In this document: piece by piece, positions 918-54,922 of the stretch
Numbering within the stretch: position 1 is the stretch's first letter
How the letters are laid out: every line of letters starts with the position of its first letter
Assembly: GCA_001791995.1 (NCBI GenBank)
Contig: MGFR01000002.1
Location: 36,457-100,456, forward strand
Reading direction: 5' to 3'
Origin: Candidatus Woesebacteria bacterium RBG_13_46_13
GTDB taxonomy: Bacteria > Patescibacteriota > Microgenomatia > UBA8517
Length of the DNA: 64,000 nucleotides
Position numbers and translations under genes: made by a program
Notes under the pieces: generated by a model
What the model was told of the DNA's origin: nothing
Database searches by the model: none
The model's input: only the letters and a program-made list of their open reading frames with translations

Positions 918-1580
918 TTGTTTGATAATATAAAATTGTCTCAAAGTCCAATTATGAAAACGGGTATCAAACTCCTTCTTGTTGTTGGGGCAACCGCCCT
1001 CTTCCTAATTTTTAACCATTTCTGGAAATGCGAAGGATTAAGATGCCTTTCATTCACTGGCCTTGAAAATTATAAGACAATCGAAGTCTACAAAAATGAT
1101 GCTTCTTCCTATAAGGCAATGCTTTCCATAGACAGCGGGGAACTTCTTAGGGTGGAGACAAGATATGGGTGGGAACCGTCGCAGGCGCAAAAGTATATAT
1201 CTTCGGAAACCCAAAGAATAAAGGGCCTATTCGCCGACGCCCCCGCTCCTTACCCAGGCGATGTGTCCAATGAAATAGTTTGTGCCAAGGAATACGCTCC
1301 AAAATATTTCGAAAAGAACATTGGCGACACAAAATTATATTATTTTTTGGGAAATATGAATTCTCGTCTTACACTGGGGGGGTGCAGCCCCGCCCAGGCC
1401 GTTTATAAAGTACAACTCGGATGGATTTATTGTTCGCAGCAAAAGAATCTCTATCAGCTGGAATTTATAGTTCCCGCCTCTTCGTACGATAAAAATCCGG
1501 AAAGATATGAAGGAGTTCTGGTCTCAATTAGATGTGTAAACCCTCTTAATTATTTGAAAACCGGAAGAATTTTACCCTGA
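918..1580 (+). CDS. Hypothetical protein with N-terminal hydrophobic anchor (start may be the internal Met at 954)
   Basis: 220 aa ORF in the track. A hydrophobic segment follows MKTGIKLLLVVGATALFLIF. No recognisable family. Confidence 0.4.
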   Translation: MFDNIKLSQSPIMKTGIKLLLVVGATALFLIFNHFWKCEGLRCLSFTGLENYKTIEVYKNDASSYKAMLSIDSGELLRVETRYGWEPSQAQKYISSETQRIKGLFADAPAPYPGDVSNEIVCAKEYAPKYFEKNIGDTKLYYFLGNMNSRLTLGGCSPAQAVYKVQLGWIYCSQQKNLYQLEFIVPASSYDKNPERYEGVLVSIRCVNPLNYLKTGRILP

Positions 1581-3547
1581 ACAAAAACAGGGATTTCTTT
1601 GCCCAGCGCCTTCATAATGGTGGGGTATTCGTCTACCATATCAAACGGTAAATTTCCGAGGAAGTTGCCCTTTTTGATATTGGGTCCGGAAATAATAAAA
1701 GGAGCCCACATGCCTGGAACCTCATCGGATTTTATGGCTTGTTTATAGCCAGTTTCCAGCGGGATGGAAAATACTTCGAGACCCTGGGTCATTTTTTCGC
1801 TCCATCCGTAACCAGGCTTGTTAGCAATTACCAAGTCTCCTATTCTTGCGGGGTCAAGGCGCAACTCCTCGCGCGCATTTTCCCACTTTACTATTTGAGC
1901 GACAGGGCTTTTTCCATCCGAGTCCCGCAAAGACGAGATTGTAGCTATAACCTCATTTCTTAGTCTTTCGTATTCGGCTCCGCTAGCCCTTTGATAATTT
2001 CCGGCCAAGCCGTTTGGATTTACAAAGACATGGGTCATTTTAAGAAAGATGACTTTTGAATTCTTCCAGTCGACAATCGGTTCTCCGGTTTGAGGGTCTA
2101 TTTTAAACTTGAGCCATCCCTTTTGAGCAAAAAGATTATTAAGTTGAACGCTTTGGTTTAAAGGAACGTTTCCGTGGTCCGATGTAAAAACGATATAAGT
2201 TTTTGGGCCGGAGACTTTTAGAATTTCTCCCACCATATCATCGAGTTTCTTATACATGTCTTTTACCTCTTCCCAAAGCTTATCTCTTTCTTCTTTCGAA
2301 ACTGTGTTGTAAAGGGATCCCTCTGGGTCAACATACCCCATCCACCAACGGCTTGTTAATATTTGATTAGGACTATATATATCGTGGATTACAACGGAAG
2401 GCTTGAAAGACTCAACCAGGGGAGCAATGGCTTTCTTGTGCCATTCGAACGATAAATTGCTTTCTTCCCAAAGGATATTTTTGTCTTCGGGGTAGTAGAC
2501 CAGCTGTGGAGGAAAGTTGTCGGCGAAATCTACCATTGGCCCGACCTTGTCAAGCAAAATTTTTGCGGCTTCCGCCGGTTGTGCAACAAGTTCGTTGAGG
2601 TTGTTGTAAAAAGCCCTAATTCTATAAAAATTATTGGGGCCAACCTTTATTAATGCTATTTTGACGGAAGTTGAGACGTCTGTTTCAGCCGTGTCGGTTT
2701 TCCACTTAAGGACAATAGGCTGCCAATTGCTCCATTGACCCGGGGAAAGAGTAGAGAAAACTGTCTTTTTATCCAAAGAAAAGGCCACTTTGTCATAATT
2801 AACCTTCCCGTCGTCTGTCGAGTCGAGAATTAGCGCCCAGATTTTCGCACCCCAGCCTACAAGCGGTACTTCCAGGGTATCCGAATAGCTGTATGGAGCA
2901 TTTTCCCAGCCGCCGGCGGGCTTTGCGTCTTCATAGATGGTAAGTTGAGGTCCGAAGTAGAAAAAACGAGCCTCCGTTCCCTGTTTGGTGCGTTGGGAAA
3001 GATTTCCCTTGGTTTCAAAATTCAAAGGTGCGAAATCTGCCCCCCATCCTCCCCATCGACCTCGAATGACAACCCCCTTATTCAACTCGGGCGGAGTTGA
3101 ACCAGGAATGGAAAGAAGGGCCACCTTTTCTCCTTGTTTCTCAAGGGTTACCCATATCGGCTCGACCTTTTTTGCCACAGACCTGAAACCCGGAACGGCT
3201 ACTTTATCAAGAGGTTTTCCTATTTCCCTCATTGGACCATCGGTAACGCCGTGTGTTTCGGGATACGAACCGGTTAAAAGAGTTGCGAAATTGGCTGGGG
3301 TGTGCCCGGGGTAGGTAGGTTTGACGTACCCATATGAACCTTTTTCCATAAGCTTTTTAATGTTGGGAAGCTTCCCTTCGTTTGCCCATTCGTAAATGTT
3401 GAAGAGGTTTGGTTCGGCTCGAACCCCGTCCGGGATAAACCAATAAAGTTTGAGGGGGGAGTAGACGGAGTTTTTGAAGACTATCAGAGCGAGTATAAGG
3501 ATTAGGGCGATTACAATTTTCTTGAGCACTACCTGAACTTTTACCAT
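1550..3547 (-). CDS. Alkaline phosphatase-superfamily enzyme, type I phosphodiesterase / nucleotide pyrophosphatase-like, membrane anchored
   Basis: 665 aa. N-terminal TM helix (IVIALILILALIVF). The C-terminal FTSDHGNVP motif and overall layout are typical of PF01663-type AP-family enzymes. Confidence 0.6.
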   Translation of the reverse strand: MVKVQVVLKKIVIALILILALIVFKNSVYSPLKLYWFIPDGVRAEPNLFNIYEWANEGKLPNIKKLMEKGSYGYVKPTYPGHTPANFATLLTGSYPETHGVTDGPMREIGKPLDKVAVPGFRSVAKKVEPIWVTLEKQGEKVALLSIPGSTPPELNKGVVIRGRWGGWGADFAPLNFETKGNLSQRTKQGTEARFFYFGPQLTIYEDAKPAGGWENAPYSYSDTLEVPLVGWGAKIWALILDSTDDGKVNYDKVAFSLDKKTVFSTLSPGQWSNWQPIVLKWKTDTAETDVSTSVKIALIKVGPNNFYRIRAFYNNLNELVAQPAEAAKILLDKVGPMVDFADNFPPQLVYYPEDKNILWEESNLSFEWHKKAIAPLVESFKPSVVIHDIYSPNQILTSRWWMGYVDPEGSLYNTVSKEERDKLWEEVKDMYKKLDDMVGEILKVSGPKTYIVFTSDHGNVPLNQSVQLNNLFAQKGWLKFKIDPQTGEPIVDWKNSKVIFLKMTHVFVNPNGLAGNYQRASGAEYERLRNEVIATISSLRDSDGKSPVAQIVKWENAREELRLDPARIGDLVIANKPGYGWSEKMTQGLEVFSIPLETGYKQAIKSDEVPGMWAPFIISGPNIKKGNFLGNLPFDMVDEYPTIMKALGKEIPVFVQGKILPVFK

Positions 3548-3635
3548 TATCCGTATTGTTTTTCAACCACCATTGGGAATGTTGTTGTATTGGAGATTTA
3601 TGGCCTGAAATTGTATAATTAGCGCTAGAATTCCC

Positions 3636-4520
3636 ATGAAGAGAGCACTATTGGCGGTCGTTTTTGCGTTATTGCTTTATTTGGCTTTTGTTCGGCCGGC
3701 ATTGGCCGTGGTTGTTAGTCCCAAACCAACCGCAACGGTTGCTCCCACGGCAACTCCCACACCCATTCCGACTCCGGTGGCCGATTTAACCGAAAAAACC
3801 AAAGAAACCCTGGGTCCACTTGAGGCACTTCTGCAGGCTCAAAAACCCGGTCCGGTTTGGCCTTTTAACCCCATAAAGCATGCGATCAGAAACGCCGTAG
3901 CGGCAGGAGTTCCGGCAAATACCATAGTTTTGCTCCTTCTTTTGCCTGTGGTTGCCGCAATTATTGCGGCCTTCAGGCACCTGGTGGGACTAAGGGGGTT
4001 TGGAATTTTCCTCCCGGCTGCTTTGGCCGTAACCTTTGTGGCCACCGGTCCGGTTGTGGGGATAGGGCTCTTCTTAACGATTGTCAGCGTTTCGATTCTG
4101 GCCAGGACGCTACTGCGGAAAACCAAGACCAAGCTTCAGTATCTGCCGCGAATGGCCCTGATCCTCTGGTTTGTGGTTTTTGGTGTCTTGGGCATTTTAT
4201 TTGCAGCCCCCATCATCAGACAGCCGCAGCTGAGCAAGGTTTCCATCTTTCCCGTCCTTATCCTGGCTCTGTTGGCCGAGGACTTTACCCGGGTGCAGCT
4301 AGGCAAATCCGCCCAGACCGCGATTAATTTAACATCCGAAACATTGGTTTTGGCCCTGGTTTCGTATTTGTTCCTGACGCTTGAACCGGTAAGGCAATTT
4401 GCTCTTCTTAACCCTGAAATATTACTTATCGGCGTGGTTATCTTCGACGTTGTTTTGGGTAAGTATGTCGGGTTGAGGATTTTGGAGATTTGGCGCTTTA
4501 GGAAACTTATCAACAGCTAA
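3636..4520 (+). CDS. Multi-pass (7TM-like) membrane protein with a signal/anchor and a Pro/Thr/Ala-rich N-terminal segment
   Basis: 294 aa. MKRALLAVVFALLLYLAF anchor, PKPTATVAPTATPTPIPTPV linker, then about 6-7 hydrophobic helices. Its stop at 4518-4520 is directly followed by the ATG at 4522 of an ATP-grasp gene. The layout resembles 7TM proteins that partner alpha-L-glutamate-ligase-like enzymes. Confidence 0.55.
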   Translation: MKRALLAVVFALLLYLAFVRPALAVVVSPKPTATVAPTATPTPIPTPVADLTEKTKETLGPLEALLQAQKPGPVWPFNPIKHAIRNAVAAGVPANTIVLLLLLPVVAAIIAAFRHLVGLRGFGIFLPAALAVTFVATGPVVGIGLFLTIVSVSILARTLLRKTKTKLQYLPRMALILWFVVFGVLGILFAAPIIRQPQLSKVSIFPVLILALLAEDFTRVQLGKSAQTAINLTSETLVLALVSYLFLTLEPVRQFALLNPEILLIGVVIFDVVLGKYVGLRILEIWRFRKLINS

Positions 4521-4521
4521 A

Positions 4522-5808
4522 ATGAAACCCTCTTCGATTCTTGGACTTAATGCCCGTTCCCAGCTTTTTTCCTACCTCTATAATTCCCCCAAAGGAAAAA
4601 GCGTTGCCGATTCGAAACTGGCCACCCATAGGGTATTGGACAAAGTCCAAATCCCAAACCCGGAAATTTTCGCAAAGTTCAAAGAACCCAGAGACGTTGA
4701 AAAATTCAACTGGGAGAGCCTTCCGGATGCTTTCGCACTCAAGCCTTCCAAAGGTTTGGGAGGAGAAGGGATAATAGTTGTTAAAAAAAAGGCACAGGAC
4801 TTGAAAGGTTGGATAACTACCCAAAGACAAAGGGTTACAGTTGATGATTTAAAACTTCACACCTCCGATATTTTGGAGGGAGCCTACTCGATGGACAATG
4901 CACCCGATGTCGCTTTTGTCCAGGAGTATGTAGGCAGGCACAAGGCCTTTCGCAAGTATGCCTACCGGGGAACTCCTGATATTCGGGTCATTGTTTTTAA
5001 CAAAGTTCCGATTATGGCCATGCTTAGGCTTCCGACCAAAGAATCGGGGGGAAGAGCAAATCTGCATCAGGGAGCAATCGGGGTGGGGATTGATATCGCA
5101 ACAGGGATTACCACCAAAGCAATCTGGCACGGAGGGCTCATTAGATTCAAACCCGATACTGGGCGCAAACTTCACGGAATAAAAATTCCCCACTGGACCC
5201 AAGTACTCGAAACGGCAGCCAAGGCCCAGAGTGCTTCCGGTTTAGGCTATCTGGGGGTGGATATTGTCCTTCATCCGGAAAAAGGGCCGATGGTTTTGGA
5301 AATCAATGCCGAGCCGGGCTTAACCATCCAGCTTGCCAATATGGCAGGATTGAGAAAAAGGCTGGATAGGATAGAAGGGTTGGAGGTAAGGGATGCCGAA
5401 CACGGCGTAAAAATCGCCAAGGCGCTCTTTGCGGCCGATTTCGCGGACAGAGTCAAAGCGGAGGAGGGAATTATCACAATTCCGGTTATGGAGGAGATTA
5501 AAGTAAAGGATAAGCGTGGCAAGAAGATGGTTATTCCCGCCAAGATAGACACCGGCGCATTCAGAACCTCCATCGACAAAACTCTGGCCAAAGACCTCGG
5601 TCTTTTGCAGGAGGAGAGTATCCTTTGGGAAAGAAGATTCAGAAACGCGATCGGAAAAGAGGAAAGGCCAATTATTCCTTTTACCTTCTGGTTAAGGGGA
5701 AGAAGAATAAAAACCACCGCAGGGGTGGCGGACAGAAGTAGACTAAGACGACCCGTCATTGTAGGAAGACGAGACCTGACCGGTTTTTTGGTAAATCCCG
5801 AAAAATGA
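4522..5808 (+). CDS. Alpha-L-glutamate ligase-like ATP-grasp enzyme fused to a C-terminal retropepsin-like aspartic protease domain
   Basis: N-terminus ILGLNARSQLFSYLYNSPKGKSVADSKLATHRVLDKVQIP resembles the RimK-related alpha-L-glutamate-ligase-like family. The C-terminal part has PAKIDTGAFRTSID, a D-T/S-G-A aspartic protease signature, as in the putative ATP-dependent zinc protease / retropepsin-like domain usually found next to RimK. Confidence 0.7.
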   Translation: MKPSSILGLNARSQLFSYLYNSPKGKSVADSKLATHRVLDKVQIPNPEIFAKFKEPRDVEKFNWESLPDAFALKPSKGLGGEGIIVVKKKAQDLKGWITTQRQRVTVDDLKLHTSDILEGAYSMDNAPDVAFVQEYVGRHKAFRKYAYRGTPDIRVIVFNKVPIMAMLRLPTKESGGRANLHQGAIGVGIDIATGITTKAIWHGGLIRFKPDTGRKLHGIKIPHWTQVLETAAKAQSASGLGYLGVDIVLHPEKGPMVLEINAEPGLTIQLANMAGLRKRLDRIEGLEVRDAEHGVKIAKALFAADFADRVKAEEGIITIPVMEEIKVKDKRGKKMVIPAKIDTGAFRTSIDKTLAKDLGLLQEESILWERRFRNAIGKEERPIIPFTFWLRGRRIKTTAGVADRSRLRRPVIVGRRDLTGFLVNPEK

Positions 5809-6716
5809 AAAAAATATTAATCATCGCCGGGGGCGGAACAAAACACATGGAGCCTTTTAAGGTGGAGGGGGAGAAGCTGGGACTAAAGGTGGTCACCGCC
5901 AGCTTTTCGGATCTCTCATACACCACAGAAGGGGAGTTAAAATTATTTGTAAAGGGACTTCTGGTTGAATCTTTTGACGTAATCTATGTCAGACTCGTCG
6001 GAAAAAGATTTGAAGATGTCTCGCTTTTGGTCAATTATGTCAAGGAAAAAGGAATAAGAATTGTAGACAAAATATACGAAAAATCTCATATAATCCGCCT
6101 TCCTATTGCCAAGGCATTGGAGGTAAAACTTCTCTCCCAGGCAGGGGTTGTCCTCCCCAAGACTTTCTTCGCGAAACTCTCCGAAATTAAGCAAAAGGCT
6201 CCCGAACTGTACGGATCCCCCTTTGTTATCAAAGGAACTACCGGTAAACAGGGGCACGCGGTTTGGTCACCGAGAAATGCCGAAGAGCTGGAAAAACTTT
6301 ATCAGGAGCTTAAAGGTAAGGAGAAAGAAGGCAAAAGGTTTTTGGCACAGGAGTTTATCAAGGCCAGCCAAAGGATTAGGGTTTTTGTCGTCGGAGGAAA
6401 AGCAATTGCCGCCATAACCAGACCGACTCGCTGGAGGAGGCGTTTTATCGCCAAGGTGAATGGGGAATTTCCGGAGGGAAGACGTGAAGCTCTACTCCCG
6501 GTTCCCCAGGAGGATGCAGATTTGGCCGTAAGTGCGGCCAACGCTTTGGATGTCGATATTGCCGGGGTGGATGTTATTCACGAAGACTCAACCGGGAAAG
6601 CCTACGTTTTGGAGGTCAATAGCGCCCCCCGCTGGGAATCAATAACTAAAGACACCGGCGTTAACGTCGAAAGAGAGATACTGTTGTATCTTGATAGTAT
6701 AATGTCAGAGAAATGA
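5805..6716 (+). CDS. RimK-family ATP-grasp ligase (ribosomal protein S6 glutamate ligase-like)
   Basis: MKKILIIAGGG..., GSPFVIKGTTGKQGHAV, RVFVVGGKAIAAITRP, AGVDVIHEDSTGKAYVLEVNSAP are ATP-grasp RimK-like motifs. Start overlaps the upstream stop (ATGA at 5805-5808). Confidence 0.75.
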   Translation: MKKILIIAGGGTKHMEPFKVEGEKLGLKVVTASFSDLSYTTEGELKLFVKGLLVESFDVIYVRLVGKRFEDVSLLVNYVKEKGIRIVDKIYEKSHIIRLPIAKALEVKLLSQAGVVLPKTFFAKLSEIKQKAPELYGSPFVIKGTTGKQGHAVWSPRNAEELEKLYQELKGKEKEGKRFLAQEFIKASQRIRVFVVGGKAIAAITRPTRWRRRFIAKVNGEFPEGRREALLPVPQEDADLAVSAANALDVDIAGVDVIHEDSTGKAYVLEVNSAPRWESITKDTGVNVEREILLYLDSIMSEK

Positions 6717-7348
6717 CCGAACTAAAAGACTTAAAGGACGGGCCGTTTGAGGAAAGGGTTGCGGAAGTTGACCGCTGGGTTATTGCCTATGCTTCAGAAG
6801 GGGCGATCGGTTTAATTGACCGGGAGATTCTTAGGGGGGTACTTTCTGAAGTTGGTGCGAATTTTGAAAATTTGGACGAGGACGGTACAAAATCCCTTGC
6901 CCAATACTCCAACAAAGGGAAACATTTGGGAATGGAACAAGTTTGGGGTGAGCGTAGAGCCGAATTTAAAACCTGGACCGAGGCTTGGGTGGAAACTTAT
7001 GAAAGAAGAACAGGAAAAGAGCTTCCGAAAGTGGTTTTTACGGATGAGGAGACAGGCGAGAAAAGACCGTCGAAGACGGAAGGAATGAGGCAGTTATTGG
7101 GTGAGCTAACGGCATATGCATCCGGTTGTCTGAGCTTTCCCGAGTTGGCAAAGATACTGATTACTAGGCGTTATAATTTTGGCAAACCAAAGGATCAGCC
7201 GGCAGAGGAAGGCGGGAGAAGGAAAATTACGTTTTCCGGTCACAATATAAGCCAAGAAACGGGTAAAGAAAAACCTTTTGCTCCGGCTTCTTTTCCTCCG
7301 GAATTTCCCCTGGATGCTTGGGAAAAGATTAAAAGTTGGCGGAAATGA
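6713..7348 (+). CDS. Hypothetical protein (operon member)
   Basis: 211 aa, acidic and charged, no recognisable family. Start overlaps the RimK stop (ATGA) and its stop overlaps the next gene. Confidence 0.5.
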   Translation: MTELKDLKDGPFEERVAEVDRWVIAYASEGAIGLIDREILRGVLSEVGANFENLDEDGTKSLAQYSNKGKHLGMEQVWGERRAEFKTWTEAWVETYERRTGKELPKVVFTDEETGEKRPSKTEGMRQLLGELTAYASGCLSFPELAKILITRRYNFGKPKDQPAEEGGRRKITFSGHNISQETGKEKPFAPASFPPEFPLDAWEKIKSWRK

Positions 7349-7935
7349 CCCCCAGAGACAGCTATCTCAGGCGTTTTCGTAAATACGGAGTTGACCCCAG
7401 GACGCTTAAGTGGCAAAGCCAAAAAGCCGCCGAGCAAAGATATTTGGAGATAACCACCCTTACGGATTTTAACGGAAAGTCTGTCTTGGATGTCGGCTGC
7501 GGTTTCGGGGATCTGGTAGCCTTCATTAATTCCAAAACCGAAAACTTCTCCTATACGGGGATAGACTTGATTAACGAGTTTATTTTAGCTGCCAGAAAAA
7601 AATATCCTGGCTTTAGCTTTGTCATGGGGGACTATTTTTCAGACCCCCTTGAGGAAAAATTCGACATCGTTGTTGCCAATGGGTCTCTAAACTCAAATGT
7701 CCCCGACAATTACGCTTTTAGGAAAAAAGCCATCAAAACAATGTTCGATCACGCAAGGCAAGCGGTTATCTTTAATATGGCAGGAGGGTTTGCTCCCAAA
7801 GAGACGGCCCGGGGAAGTAACGTGTTCTTTGCGGACGCTTCCAAGATAGTCGGATTTTGCGAAAGTCTTACCTCCTCAGTCGTTTTGACAGACCACCCCG
7901 GCCGGCGGGAATTTACCGTAATTATGGCCCGTTAG
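7336..7935 (+). CDS. Class I SAM-dependent methyltransferase
   Basis: Motif I VLDVGCGFGDL and downstream DIVVANGSL are typical of Rossmann-fold MTases. Overlaps the upstream ORF by 13 nt. Confidence 0.65.
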   Translation: MAEMTPRDSYLRRFRKYGVDPRTLKWQSQKAAEQRYLEITTLTDFNGKSVLDVGCGFGDLVAFINSKTENFSYTGIDLINEFILAARKKYPGFSFVMGDYFSDPLEEKFDIVVANGSLNSNVPDNYAFRKKAIKTMFDHARQAVIFNMAGGFAPKETARGSNVFFADASKIVGFCESLTSSVVLTDHPGRREFTVIMAR

Positions 7936-7986: not shown

Positions 7987-8268
7987 ATGGAGGCACAAGC
8001 TTACTTTAACTGGATCCGTCGTCGGGCCGCGACACTGATTGTTGTTTCAGGTTTCCTGATTGTCGGCGCTATTGCGGCCTTCCTCTTCGGCAGGCCCGTG
8101 GTCGGAATGGTTCTGCTCTTGGGAGGGTTCATTCCCGGCTCTATGGCGGGAACCATCGGCTCGGCGAGCGAGCAGAAAGGCTGCTTTTGGTTTGCGGCAA
8201 GCATTATCTGCTGGCTCGCATTTTTGGGAGTGGTTGCCTGGGCTGTCTACGCCAACCTTTTCGGATAG
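7987..8268 (+). CDS. Small membrane protein (3 predicted TM helices)
   Basis: 93 aa hydrophobic ORF preceded by AAAGGAGGAGAGC ATG, a strong SD. Confidence 0.45.
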   Translation: MEAQAYFNWIRRRAATLIVVSGFLIVGAIAAFLFGRPVVGMVLLLGGFIPGSMAGTIGSASEQKGCFWFAASIICWLAFLGVVAWAVYANLFG

Positions 8269-8282
8269 GAAAGCCTCACCAT

Positions 8283-8333
8283 GTGCGCGGGATTATCCCG
8301 AAAGAGATGATTCCGCGCACGAAGTTTTTATTT
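8283..8333. terminator. Stem-loop (GTGCGCGG...CCGCGCAC) followed by a T-rich tract; probable terminator between convergent genes
   Basis: 8 bp GC-rich inverted repeat at 8283-8290 / 8313-8320, followed by GAAGTTTTTATTT. Lies between the stop of the 7987-8268 gene and the stop of rplL. Confidence 0.4.
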
Positions 8334-9369: not shown

Positions 9370-9397
9370 ATTATAAATTAAAGGGGATTATTGTCAA
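9370..9397 (-). promoter_or_regulatory. Near-consensus sigma70-type promoter (TTGACA-16 nt-TATAAT) upstream of the rplJ leader
   Basis: Minus strand: TTGACA (9392-9397), ATAATCCCCTTTAATT spacer, TATAAT (9370-9375). Confidence 0.35.
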
Positions 9398-10146
9398 CCG
9401 TTAGCTTTGCCTTCACCCCGCAGAATCCTTAAAAAGGGAATTCTGTCGTACCAGCGTCTTTTAATCTCCTGCCCTCGGCTAATGGATTGCTTGGCGGCAA
9501 CTTGTTCAAGGGCTGGTGCGGGGGTTGCTGGGGGCTGGGTTTTGGTCTCAACCACCTGCCCGATGCCTCTTTGGGCTACCTGTTCGCGGTAGTCGGGGGC
9601 CGGCCTAACCGGGCCTTGCCTAACGGCGGTTTCGACATATTTGGGGGCAAGTCTGGTTTGCTCTCTTTTTAACCAGGAAGGGGCTGTTGCGGGGGCCTCT
9701 GTCGAGGTGGCGGTTGTCGGAAAGGTTTCCGTTTGTGAAGGCGTCTCGGCAGGAGGGGTAACCGGAGCTGGCGTTCTCCTTACAAAGACAGAAGGCGCTT
9801 GGGCTTTGGCATCGATTTCTTTTTGAGTATCCATTATTGCATTAAATCTTCTAACCCCCTCGTCTCTTATTCCGCTTTTGGCCTTAACCGCTTCCGGGGT
9901 CGTTCCCTCCCAGTTGGCCATGCTTGCGGCTAGTCTGTTGCGATCGGTTAAGGGCTCGAGTTTGTTCTCGGCCGTTATGGTATCGGACCCTTTAGCTTCC
10001 TCTTCCTGTCCGCCGCTTTTGGTCTTAACTTTTCCCGGGGTCGTTCCCTCCCAGTTGGCCATGCTTGCGGCTAGTCTGTTGCGATCGGTTAAGGGCTCAC
10101 GTTGATCCTCGGCCATGAGTATTATTCTAACAGGGGCAAAAGGCAA
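9394..10146 (-). CDS. Hypothetical Pro/Thr/Ala-rich protein with an internal duplicated 21-residue motif, inserted between rplA and rplJ
   Basis: 250 aa ORF filling the whole rplA-rplJ gap. The motif EPLTDRNRLAASMANWEGTTP occurs twice and is encoded by two 64 bp identical DNA repeats. The start may be the internal Met (MAEDQREPL). Confidence 0.5.
   Translation of the reverse strand: MPFAPVRIILMAEDQREPLTDRNRLAASMANWEGTTPGKVKTKSGGQEEEAKGSDTITAENKLEPLTDRNRLAASMANWEGTTPEAVKAKSGIRDEGVRRFNAIMDTQKEIDAKAQAPSVFVRRTPAPVTPPAETPSQTETFPTTATSTEAPATAPSWLKREQTRLAPKYVETAVRQGPVRPAPDYREQVAQRGIGQVVETKTQPPATPAPALEQVAAKQSISRGQEIKRRWYDRIPFLRILRGEGKANG
9894..9957. repeat. 64 bp direct repeat, copy 1 (intragenic)
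   Basis: CCGGGGTCGTTCCCTCCCAGTTGGCCATGCTTGCGGCTAGTCTGTTGCGATCGGTTAAGGGCTC is identical to the copy at 10035-10098. Confidence 0.85.
10035..10098. repeat. 64 bp direct repeat, copy 2 (intragenic)
   Basis: Exact copy of 9894-9957, 141 bp away, in the same reading frame of the 9394-10146 ORF. Confidence 0.85.
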
Positions 10147-25021: not shown

Positions 25022-25237
25022 TTGAGGATGATCGGTACTAAAGTTATCTTAACAGTATTATTTAATGTTGCGGGTATTGTAATTATCGCTTGGGGTATGT
25101 TCAACGACAAAATTTGGGTTATGGCAGTCGGCGGTGCGCTTACGGGCATAGTAATTGGGCTTATGTACGACGACTTGTTAGGTCAGATTAGGGATGTGAA
25201 GATTGACGAAGAAGAGGAAGAAGAGGAGGACCAGTGA
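25022..25237 (+). CDS. Small 2-TM membrane protein with poly-Glu C-terminal tail
   Basis: 71 aa; ...KIDEEEEEEEDQ. Confidence 0.35.
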   Translation: MRMIGTKVILTVLFNVAGIVIIAWGMFNDKIWVMAVGGALTGIVIGLMYDDLLGQIRDVKIDEEEEEEEDQ

Positions 25238-54022: not shown

Positions 54023-54922
54023 ATGGGCGAAACAGGCGAGACTCCAAAATCAGAATCTTCAAAAAGGCCGATATTACCTGAAATTTCCGAACACTCAAAA
54101 ATCGTTGAAGCCGCCAAAAGGAGATATTCCAGCCTGGGCGGCGTTTTATCCTGGAGCGGGTTTCCAAAGGAAGAACTTGATGAAATTTATGTTTGGTGGG
54201 ACGGATATAAAAAGACGGAAGATAAACTGCAGAGGTTTGAGATCGTTATGTCTTCAGGCAAATTGCCTGAACTTGAAGGGGAACAGTTAAAGAAAGAGTG
54301 GGAAGAGATTCGGGTACCGGTAGACTCCATCAACAGACAAATCGTCGAGTTTACCCGGGCCGACAAAGTGGAGGGTAATAAGCTGGGCTCCGTAGTTAAT
54401 CTCATGAAGGATGTAGATGAAAACCTTTCGTGGTTTACCCAGGCACTTGCCTTGGGGGAAGCACTTGTGGCGACCCGGGCCGAAAACCCGGACGATAGGC
54501 TGATGAGAATAAAAATTGCCCAAGGTGCATGGGAGGAGCTTTTGAATTCATTCACTTATGCCAAGCTGCACTACGCCGCCGAAACCGACATGGTTGTTAC
54601 AACGGAGGACGACCTGGAAGAGCAGAAAGCGGAACTCATGGCCTCTCTGGGCAGAAAGCCCTGGGGTGTAAGACAAACGGAAAAGAACAGGAAGGTCTAT
54701 AAAGGGTTACGCAAACAGATAATAGCTTCAGAATACGATACGGAAATTGCCGATAACCTGAAAATTGTTTGGGATTCGGCCAGAGGTTCGGTTCCTCAAG
54801 GAACATCCGCACTGGATATTTTAAGTGCAAACGAATTGGTTCTTCAAGGGCTTCATGCAGAAGGAGCCTTCGAGTGGGATCTTGAGGAGCTGGAAGAAGC
54901 GGGAGAAGGAGAAGAGGAATAG
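54023..54922 (+). CDS. Hypothetical protein with acidic C-terminus
   Basis: 299 aa ending ...LEELEEAGEGEEE. No family recognised. Confidence 0.45.
   Translation: MGETGETPKSESSKRPILPEISEHSKIVEAAKRRYSSLGGVLSWSGFPKEELDEIYVWWDGYKKTEDKLQRFEIVMSSGKLPELEGEQLKKEWEEIRVPVDSINRQIVEFTRADKVEGNKLGSVVNLMKDVDENLSWFTQALALGEALVATRAENPDDRLMRIKIAQGAWEELLNSFTYAKLHYAAETDMVVTTEDDLEEQKAELMASLGRKPWGVRQTEKNRKVYKGLRKQIIASEYDTEIADNLKIVWDSARGSVPQGTSALDILSANELVLQGLHAEGAFEWDLEELEEAGEGEEE

Follow-up and report, generated by a model that had tools for sequence, protein, structure and literature searches.

A Patescibacteria variant of the Rlo/Rim-type ligase–retropepsin systems in a compact operon of a Woesebacteria genome

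We analysed a stretch of 64,000 nucleotides (nt) from Candidatus Woesebacteria bacterium RBG_13_46_13 (contig MGFR01000002.1, positions 36,457 to 100,456 of the forward strand; hereafter the window, whose own numbering is used throughout), which contains an operon of five genes, g1 to g5. They code for a membrane protein with seven transmembrane (TM) helices (7TM), an ATP-grasp ligase fused to a retropepsin-like protease, a RimK-like ATP-grasp ligase, a protein of an orphan family, and a class I methyltransferase. An initial annotation had placed five open reading frames (ORFs) on the plus strand and read them as a putative peptide-ligation or tagging system; the ORF listing confirmed all five with the same coordinates (Table 1), the operon is real, and the overall reading proved to be largely correct. 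The operon is a Patescibacteria variant of a Rlo/Rim-type system, and not a categorically new one. Base composition across it is unremarkable.

The five genes are tightly packed. The 1-nt gap at 4520/4522 and the ATGA overlaps at 5805–5808 and 6713–6716 are as initially described, while a 13-nt overlap between g4 and g5 was not upheld, since it needs a TTG start at 7336. In the g5 frame, the ATG at 7345 shares bases with the TGA of g4 (7346–7348), which creates a third ATGA junction, and the g5 homolog of locus L003, as called, begins with the same arrangement at the end of g4; for both reasons, ATG 7345 is probably the start of g5. The packing had been taken as a sign that the genes make up one functional unit. 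Short gene overlaps are frequent all over this compact genome, so the overlaps by themselves show just operon packing, and conservation of gene order is the stronger evidence. The identical five genes occur in identical order in L003, L051, and L052, with g4 proteins that are 55–93% identical, and the same genes, with g4 and the methyltransferase gene in swapped order, are found in L013, L048, and L050. A census of loci showed, on the other hand, that the five genes are not a fixed unit: g3, g4, and g5 are variable, lineage-specific accessories.

Table 1. Features of the operon and its immediate borders (window coordinates)
Feature	Coordinates	Strand	Description
Promoter-like site	3591–3619	+	TGGAGA-17 nt-TATAAT, 5' of g1; consensus scan, 10/12 matches, pattern match only
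g1	3636–4520	+	294 amino acids (aa)
g1 regions			Signal peptide, aa 1–24; disordered Pro/Thr linker, aa 25–59; seven TM helices, aa ~94–278
g1 conserved cytoplasmic tail	4470–4502	+	GLRxxExxRFR, aa 279–289
g2	4522–5808	+	428 aa
g2 N-terminal domain	4522–5421	+	RloC-type (alpha-L-glutamate-ligase-like) ATP-grasp, aa 1–300; profiles
g2 C-terminal domain	5494–5808	+	RimB/RloA-type retropepsin, aa ~325–428; alignment and profile
g2 catalytic D343	5548–5550 (codon)	+	Motif AKIDTGA; other key residues K341, R382, R405, and the VGRRDL motif
g3	5805–6716	+	303 aa
g4	6713–7348	+	211 aa
g5	7345–7935 (preferred ATG) or 7336–7935 (alternative TTG, 199 aa)	+	
93-aa membrane ORF	7987–8268	+	3' of g5; strong Shine-Dalgarno sequence, TM-like hydropathy
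Terminator-like hairpin	8282–8321	+	16-bp stem, between the operon and convergent rplL; pattern scan, the sole strong one

According to the initial annotation, this architecture had not been studied experimentally. This holds for the five-gene version but not for the core trio, which is RloABC of Pseudomonas aeruginosa, named by Lormand et al. (mBio 2025, PMC12239564); RimB and RimK, including a RimBK hybrid, have also been characterised (PMC11957791). RloA, like its two paralogs, is a secreted retropepsin and cuts glutamate runs of eight or more; RloB joins an inactive transglutaminase to a 7TM domain, and RloC is a cytosolic ATP-grasp protein (PMC12239564). Cells with a triple deletion of rloA1-3 die in low-salt medium and have shape, biofilm, and beta-lactam defects, and both the lethality and the defects are suppressed by deletion of rloB or rloC (PMC12239564). 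Residues K46, R114, and R137 of RloA coordinate poly-Glu around the catalytic D48, and the R114A and R137A substitutions abolish activity and complementation; 96% of RloB hits were assigned to Proteobacteria (PMC12239564). Little et al. (JBC 2025, PMC11957791) reported that RimB trims the poly-Glu tails of ribosomal protein S6 and stimulates poly-alpha-Glu synthesis by RimK, that RimK makes free poly-Glu as well, and that natural RimBK hybrids, with the protease at the N-terminus, are active. A Shewanella mutant in a RloB-like gene hypervesiculates. No published description of the Rlo-like system in Patescibacteria was found in the literature searched.

The g2 fusion of an ATP-grasp ligase with a retropepsin, proposed in the initial annotation, is real, and profile searches identified both halves as a PF14397/TIGR02291 domain and a PF05618-type domain. 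The N-terminal half matches PF14397 at 228 bits (cutoff 31.4) over profile positions 3–277 of 278. It matches TIGR02291 at 271.3 bits over positions 10–304 of 317, which does not reach the equivalog cutoff of 314.2; the score for rimK_fam is 59 bits, and the domain thus falls in the RloC subfamily. Judged by these profiles, the g2 ligase is a member of the same family as RloC, below the NCBI equivalog level. The Mg/ATP-binding residues and the catalytic K/D/E/N set are intact, and the domain carries a RimK-like loop, RANLHQGA (R-x-N-L-H-x-G). No TM or signal segment was detected in g2, the maximal 19-residue hydropathy being 1.15.

When used as a single sequence, the C-terminal part of g2 is matched weakly by PF05618 and RloA3. 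An alignment of 37 retropepsin sequences from 37 diverse loci (A1) gave a much clearer picture: D-[TS]-G-A is invariant in it and I-I-G-R-x-[DN]-L nearly so. The best matches of the A1 profile were the RloA crystal structures 9g58/9g59 (9e-10), which make the retropepsin assignment secure; 2pma came next (6e-7), ahead of Ddi1 and ApRick. Residues K341, D343, R382, and R405 of g2 correspond to K46, D48, R114, and R137 of RloA. The lysine is present in 35 of the 37 aligned sequences and each of the other three residues in all 37; the spacing between the two arginines is 23 residues in both proteins.

g1 belongs to the 7TM_transglut family, as had been predicted (PF14402, 93.7 bits, cutoff 25), and both the hydropathy profile and an AlphaFold2 (AF2) model contain seven TM helices. 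The match of the RloB profile NF052267 to g1 is restricted to positions 312–506 of 508 (67 bits, cutoff 900). Profile searches found no transglutaminase domain in g1, whose N-terminus consists of a signal peptide and a disordered Pro/Thr linker. The AF2 model has a mean pLDDT (predicted local distance difference test score) of 73.6, with ~80–90 in the TM core and <50 in the disordered Pro/Thr segment, and a fold search against solved structures returned no convincing relative. Across 43 orthologs, the predicted cytoplasmic loops and C-terminal tail have conservation values of 0.59–0.69 and contain 14 lysines plus arginines, compared to 0.42–0.45 and 3 for the outside loops. The best-conserved parts of the protein are these cytoplasmic loops and the C-terminal GLRxxExxRFR motif, and the conserved face of g1 is therefore cytoplasmic. 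The final 3–12 residues of the 7TM protein are not conserved.

The N-terminal ectodomain differs between lineages. It is absent from many Parcubacteria (forms of 217–236 aa), consists of a signal peptide and a Pro/Thr linker in Woesebacteria, is a PKD domain in Falkowbacteria, and is a transglutaminase domain in Proteobacteria; long 7TM versions of ~520 aa (L036, 1494–3047, and similar ones in L033, L034, L041, and L042) likewise carry an N-terminal PKD and not a transglutaminase domain. The suggestion that the Pro/Thr/Ala-rich N-terminal segment of g1 serves as the substrate or as a docking site for the ligase did not hold up. Such a role is unlikely because the segment comes after a signal peptide, which by prediction puts it on the outer side of the membrane, whereas the ligase is soluble (g2 to g5 have neither signal nor TM segments). 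It is also the least conserved part of g1, is missing from many orthologs, and is disordered in the model.

Relatives of the g2 fusion number more than 7,000, and the best 120 of them are without exception full-length proteins of Patescibacteria. When species-representative genomes were scanned, 43 loci emerged, which span Microgenomates, Parcubacteria, Saccharibacteria (L031, for example), and Gracilibacteria. In each of the 42 informative genome loci, the fusion gene is immediately preceded by the 7TM gene, and the co-conservation of 7TM, ligase, and protease anticipated earlier is thus observed. By this measure, g1 is the obligate membrane partner of g2. One to three further ATP-grasp genes follow the fusion gene directly in 31 of the 39 loci with enough downstream DNA, while other accessories vary by locus and include the rare g4, a methyltransferase, GNAT proteins, MATCAP/QEGLA-type metallopeptidases, and large unknown proteins.

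In one Gracilibacteria locus (L046, 15–3388, DATDAE010000112.1), a 777-aa protein encoded directly after a PF14402 7TM gene combines the ATP-grasp domain (PF14397/TIGR02291) with a MATCAP/QEGLA metallocarboxypeptidase in place of the retropepsin. Stand-alone MATCAP-like genes are present in four other operons (L010, L025, L030, and L031). The MATCAP family is reported to process acidic tubulin tails and to deglutamylate (PMC10499314). Replacement of the peptidase by a non-homologous one in L046 strongly suggests that the conserved logic is that of a ligase and a peptidase that undoes its work.

Many records in this collection (L005, L006, L009–L011, L014, L017, L018, and others) are titled 'uncultured Gammaproteobacteria', 'Alphaproteobacteria', or 'Bdellovibrionales'. 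The same contigs carry the Patescibacteria-type operon beside a Patescibacteria-like rplL cluster, and the titles are probably taxonomic mislabels. An apparent triple fusion of 7TM, ligase, and protease in L020 (6002–8119) was rejected as an artefact, a run of 100 N bridging the gene junction there.

Of the accessory genes, g3 was correctly recognised at the outset as RimK-like: it matches PF08443 at 88.2 bits (cutoff 21) and the RimK structures 7qyr, 5zct, and 4iwx of the Protein Data Bank at E ~1e-15, with a TIGR00768 score (128.8 bits) below the cutoff of 143.4. The catalytic K/D/E/N columns are invariant in the g3 orthogroup (alignment A4), and the substrate loop of RimK, EFRSNLHRGG, is replaced there by an Arg-rich TRPTRWRRRF..KVNGEFPEG. 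Hydropathy analysis found no TM or signal segments in g3, g4, or g5.

g4 encodes a 211-aa soluble protein with a confidently predicted helical fold that includes a hairpin. Profile searches assigned it to no family, as was to be expected of a gene listed as hypothetical, and neither sequence nor fold searches revealed relatives outside its own orphan family. The protein had been called acidic, which is correct only in a mild sense (pI 5.7). The family is marked by the motifs YSNKGKHLG, SKTEGMRQF, and PFAPASFPPEFP, and in most homologs a conserved SW[RK] motif lies almost at the C-terminus, with no more than a few residues after it. In most informative contexts, g4 homologs adjoin an ATP-grasp, methyltransferase, or rplL gene, and g4 is present in 3 of the 43 genome loci. 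We considered g4 as a universal acceptor and rejected this since it is too rare. Nor is it a dedicated partner of the methyltransferase: though frequently neighbours, in one order or the other, the two genes also occur apart, with g4 but no methyltransferase in L001, L017, L018, and L064, and with the methyltransferase but no g4 in L015.

Outside any Rlo-like operon, a g4-family protein with 36% identity is encoded in L072 (2164–5095) and also in L073 and L074. The gene lies between those for a polysaccharide deacetylase (PF01522) and a YibE/F membrane protein, with a Mur-ligase-like gene nearby on the opposite strand. In L002 (7796–8432), the g4 homolog appears as two overlapping ORFs amid transposase, resolvase, and PIN genes and is probably a disrupted copy.

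The initial assignment of g5 as a class I methyltransferase was borne out by matches to PF13649 (43.7 bits, cutoff 27), PF13847 (40, cutoff 27), and PF08242 (36.6, cutoff 30). Its best NCBIfam matches are weak, led by a phthiotriol (hydroxyl) O-methyltransferase and followed by the carboxyl O-methyltransferases Mtf2, BioC, and Tam; no NCBIfam model of equivalog level comes anywhere near its cutoff. The nearest solved structures, LahSB and BamL, are tailoring methyltransferases of ribosomally synthesized and post-translationally modified peptides (RiPPs), and match weakly as well (E ~1e-5 to 1e-6). As far as can be told from sequence comparison, these similarities mostly reflect the S-adenosylmethionine (SAM)-binding fold and are too weak for a substrate assignment.

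The operon shares with Rlo the combination of a TIGR02291/PF14397 ATP-grasp ligase, a PF14402 7TM protein, and a PF05618-type retropepsin in one operon, the catalytic Asp and poly-Glu-coordinating Lys/Arg/Arg set kept in g2, and a g1 protein that ends at the C-terminal motif of RloB. It differs from Rlo in that the protease is C-terminal to a cytoplasmic ligase and has no signal peptide, whereas RloA is secreted; in that g1 lacks the periplasmic inactive transglutaminase of RloB, the ectodomain being absent, a Pro/Thr linker, or, in relatives, a PKD domain; in the one to three additional ATP-grasp genes of most Patescibacteria loci; and in its hosts, which are Patescibacteria instead of the Proteobacteria typical of RloB. 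As in the Rim system, an ATP-grasp ligase, in g2 a probable glutamate ligase, is paired or fused with a retropepsin of the poly-Glu-cleaving type, both cytoplasmic, and g3 is a RimK-family protein. However, in g2 the ligase is of RloC type and precedes the protease, while in RimBK the protease is N-terminal to RimK; there is a membrane partner, g1, which Rim lacks; and S6, the Rim target, has no acidic tail in the source genome. A further parallel is with TTL/TTLL and MATCAP/TMCP, where a ligase extends an acidic C-terminal tail and a peptidase takes the added residues off again; in L046, the ligase is fused directly to a MATCAP-family domain. This is an analogy of logic only, as no tubulin is involved and the window has a retropepsin, not MATCAP.

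Because the poly-Glu-coordinating residues of RloA are conserved in g2 and catalytic and loop residues of RimK type are retained in the ligase domain, the core probably makes and trims glutamate chains. Our preferred reading, to which we assign a probability of about 0.55 on the basis of these comparisons, is that the core, docked on g1, builds and trims alpha-linked, Glu-rich chains on the cytoplasmic side of the membrane, with g3 to g5 serving in optional tailoring. The ligase domain of g2 would use ATP to add L-glutamate stepwise to a C-terminal carboxylate, yielding alpha-linked chains as RimK does, and the retropepsin would cut the chains, setting their length and regenerating acceptor ends, as RimB does for RimK. 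Both domains would act at the inner membrane face while docked on g1, which may export the product or be regulated by it. The products of g3, g4, and g5 would provide steps used in some Woesebacteria only and may extend, bind, or cap the chain, with g5 possibly capping the carboxylate. Judging by analogy from what rlo mutants of Pseudomonas show, the operon probably contributes to homeostasis of the cell envelope or of osmotic balance; candidate acceptors are free glutamate, an envelope precursor, and a protein tail.

Several points weigh against this interpretation. The Glu specificity of TIGR02291-type ligases, the Pseudomonas one included, is a prediction, and g2 itself scores below the equivalog cutoff of that family (271 vs 314). 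The g2 protease is cytoplasmic while RloA is secreted, and product handling may therefore differ. The distance from the catalytic Asp to R382, in the flap region, is 39 residues in g2 and 66 in RloA; with a flap so much shorter, substrate recognition may also be different. Since the 7TM fold has no solved relative, an exporter role for g1 is speculation. Finally, up to three extra ATP-grasp ligases that have diverged from one another suggest that the product may be a peptide of mixed composition and not simple poly-Glu.

The main competing explanation places the chain on a protein. Here, the ligases would add a short Glu-rich C-terminal tail that the fused peptidase removes, in the manner of RimK/RimB on S6 or TTL/MATCAP on tubulin, with the cytoplasmic tail of the 7TM protein, g4, or an unlinked protein as the target. 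Reversible tagging is reportedly what comparative genomics first predicted: Iyer, Abhiman, Burroughs, and Aravind (Mol Biosyst 2009) are said to have described a neighbourhood of ATP-grasp, 7TM-inactive-transglutaminase, and aspartyl-protease genes, with mainly proteobacterial examples, and to have predicted that it adds and removes peptide tags at the membrane. To our knowledge, the fused, transglutaminase-less, multi-ligase architecture of the candidate phyla radiation (CPR) and the g4 family were not described there. The peptidase swap in Gracilibacteria, to a family that trims protein tails, fits a C-terminal tag; the 7TM protein, the only universally linked partner, has a highly conserved cytoplasmic C-tail; and most g4 homologs end close to SW[RK]. 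Both RimK and RimB act on a protein C-terminus, but since RimK can also make free poly-Glu a protein acceptor is unnecessary (PMC11957791). Moreover, the very end of the 7TM protein is not conserved, and g4 cannot be a general target because it occurs in only 3 of 43 genome loci. The S6 homolog of the source genome (59021–59341, plus strand) is short and ends in ...IIRYLLVREK, without a Glu-Glu end and without the acidic extension at the C-terminus on which RimK acts in Pseudomonas and E. coli, and the absence of an acidic tail makes it an unlikely target. We regard protein tagging as possible but doubtful. The same state of S6 bears on the idea that the operon serves RimK-type glutamylation of S6 or another ribosomal protein, which draws on the RimK-family g3 and on the rplL-rplJ-rplA-rplK neighbourhood, the operon being convergent on rplL in all Woesebacteria loci. 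The convergent orientation means that it is not co-transcribed with these genes, Parcubacteria versions lie away from ribosomal genes, the obligate partner is a membrane protein, and g3 lacks the RimK substrate loop, so that ribosome modification is hardly credible.

The acceptor could also be a peptidoglycan or lipid-linked precursor, to which the ligases would add amino acids at the inner membrane face, like D-Ala-D-Ala or D-aspartate ligase, with the 7TM protein handling the lipid intermediate and the peptidase editing. In at least 13 Parcubacteria loci (L025, L027–L030, L033–L037, and L040–L042), a gene for a class A penicillin-binding protein (PBP) comes next, in the same orientation, after the 7TM gene, the fusion gene, and one to three extra ATP-grasp genes, at distances from -8 to about +46 nt and with a stop/start overlap in L036; several Woesebacteria loci have an UppS-like prenyltransferase gene upstream, and some of the ATP-grasp paralogs match Ddl models. 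The beta-lactam sensitivity, shape defects, and hypo-osmotic death of Pseudomonas rlo mutants and the hypervesiculation in Shewanella point the same way. Yet the unrelated YebC and RuvC genes, upstream in the same Parcubacteria loci, are as conserved as the PBP gene, whose linkage may thus be plain synteny, and the envelope link can for this reason be called no more than suggestive. Given also that the operon of the window contains no PBP, Mur, or Fem genes, that the Woesebacteria operons simply abut the rplL cluster, and that the protease retains poly-Glu-binding residues, cell-wall peptide chemistry seems unlikely to us. We give still less credence to a small modified peptide natural product, assembled by several L-amino-acid ligases, capped by N- or C-terminal tailoring, and exported by the 7TM protein. 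The tailoring genes do differ per locus (methyltransferase, GNAT, carboxypeptidase, extra ligases), and LahSB and BamL belong to RiPP tailoring; against this, the resemblance of g5 to them is mostly that of a SAM-binding fold, and a housekeeping function would better account for a core that entire candidate phyla with minimal genomes have kept.

The preferred reading of Glu-chain synthesis and trimming can be carried further, to a template-independent, membrane-coupled peptide-polymer factory, although we consider this extension improbable. Up to four ATP-grasp ligases would make an acidic oligopeptide with a poly-alpha-glutamate core, methyl- or acetyl-capped in some lineages; the fused peptidase would set its length, and a seven-helix exporter of a new type would deliver it as a fixed anionic envelope polymer of CPR bacteria that stands in for teichoic acids or osmoregulated periplasmic glucans, with g4 as an enzyme of new fold or a chaperone. 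If true, the same logic would also explain the unsolved Rlo phenotypes of Pseudomonas.

Elsewhere in the window, a candidate 71-aa ORF (25022–25237, plus strand) has two hydrophobic segments and ends in KIDEEEEEEEDQ, an encoded poly-glutamate tail of the sequence type cut by RloA/RimB-type proteases. A 299-aa ORF (54023–54922, plus strand) has an acidic C-terminal tail, ...EELEEAGEGEEE.

In Pseudomonas, osmotic survival, cell shape, biofilm formation, and tolerance of beta-lactams are all influenced by the Rlo trio, and a pared-down version of it is kept across candidate phyla with very small genomes. As the 7TM gene is always adjacent and the fusion protein has more than 7,000 relatives, ligase, peptidase, and 7TM protein appear to be the functional minimum, and the transglutaminase domain and secretion of the protease appear dispensable. 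The presence of ligase and protease on one soluble polypeptide makes the chemistry testable with a single recombinant protein. Independent support for a cycle of adding and trimming on an acidic C-terminal chain comes from the MATCAP swap in Gracilibacteria. Phylum-wide conservation, the cytoplasmic fusion, transglutaminase loss, the exchange of the peptidase, and the multiple ligases are the points of interest, and g4 (confident model) and the 7TM protein (moderate model), both without structural relatives, are targets for structural and functional work.

At the downstream border, a pattern scan found no terminator between g5 and the 93-aa membrane ORF, which may be in the same transcript as g1 to g5. 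L051 and L077 were the only loci with homologs of this ORF, and the 43 genome loci had none; being kept solely in the nearest relatives, the ORF was rejected as a component of the system. Among the PADLOC models of anti-phage defence, g1 to g4 had no match and g5 had a generic methyltransferase match only. Divergent from the operon lies a gene (1550–3547, minus strand) for a 665-aa membrane-anchored protein of the type I phosphodiesterase/nucleotide pyrophosphatase family, and the closest relative, L051, has the same neighbour. On the other side, the rplKAJL cluster contains an unusual insertion between rplJ and rplA, a 250-aa ORF (9394–10146, minus strand) with two copies of EPLTDRNRLAASMANWEGTTP and Pro/Thr/Ala-rich stretches.

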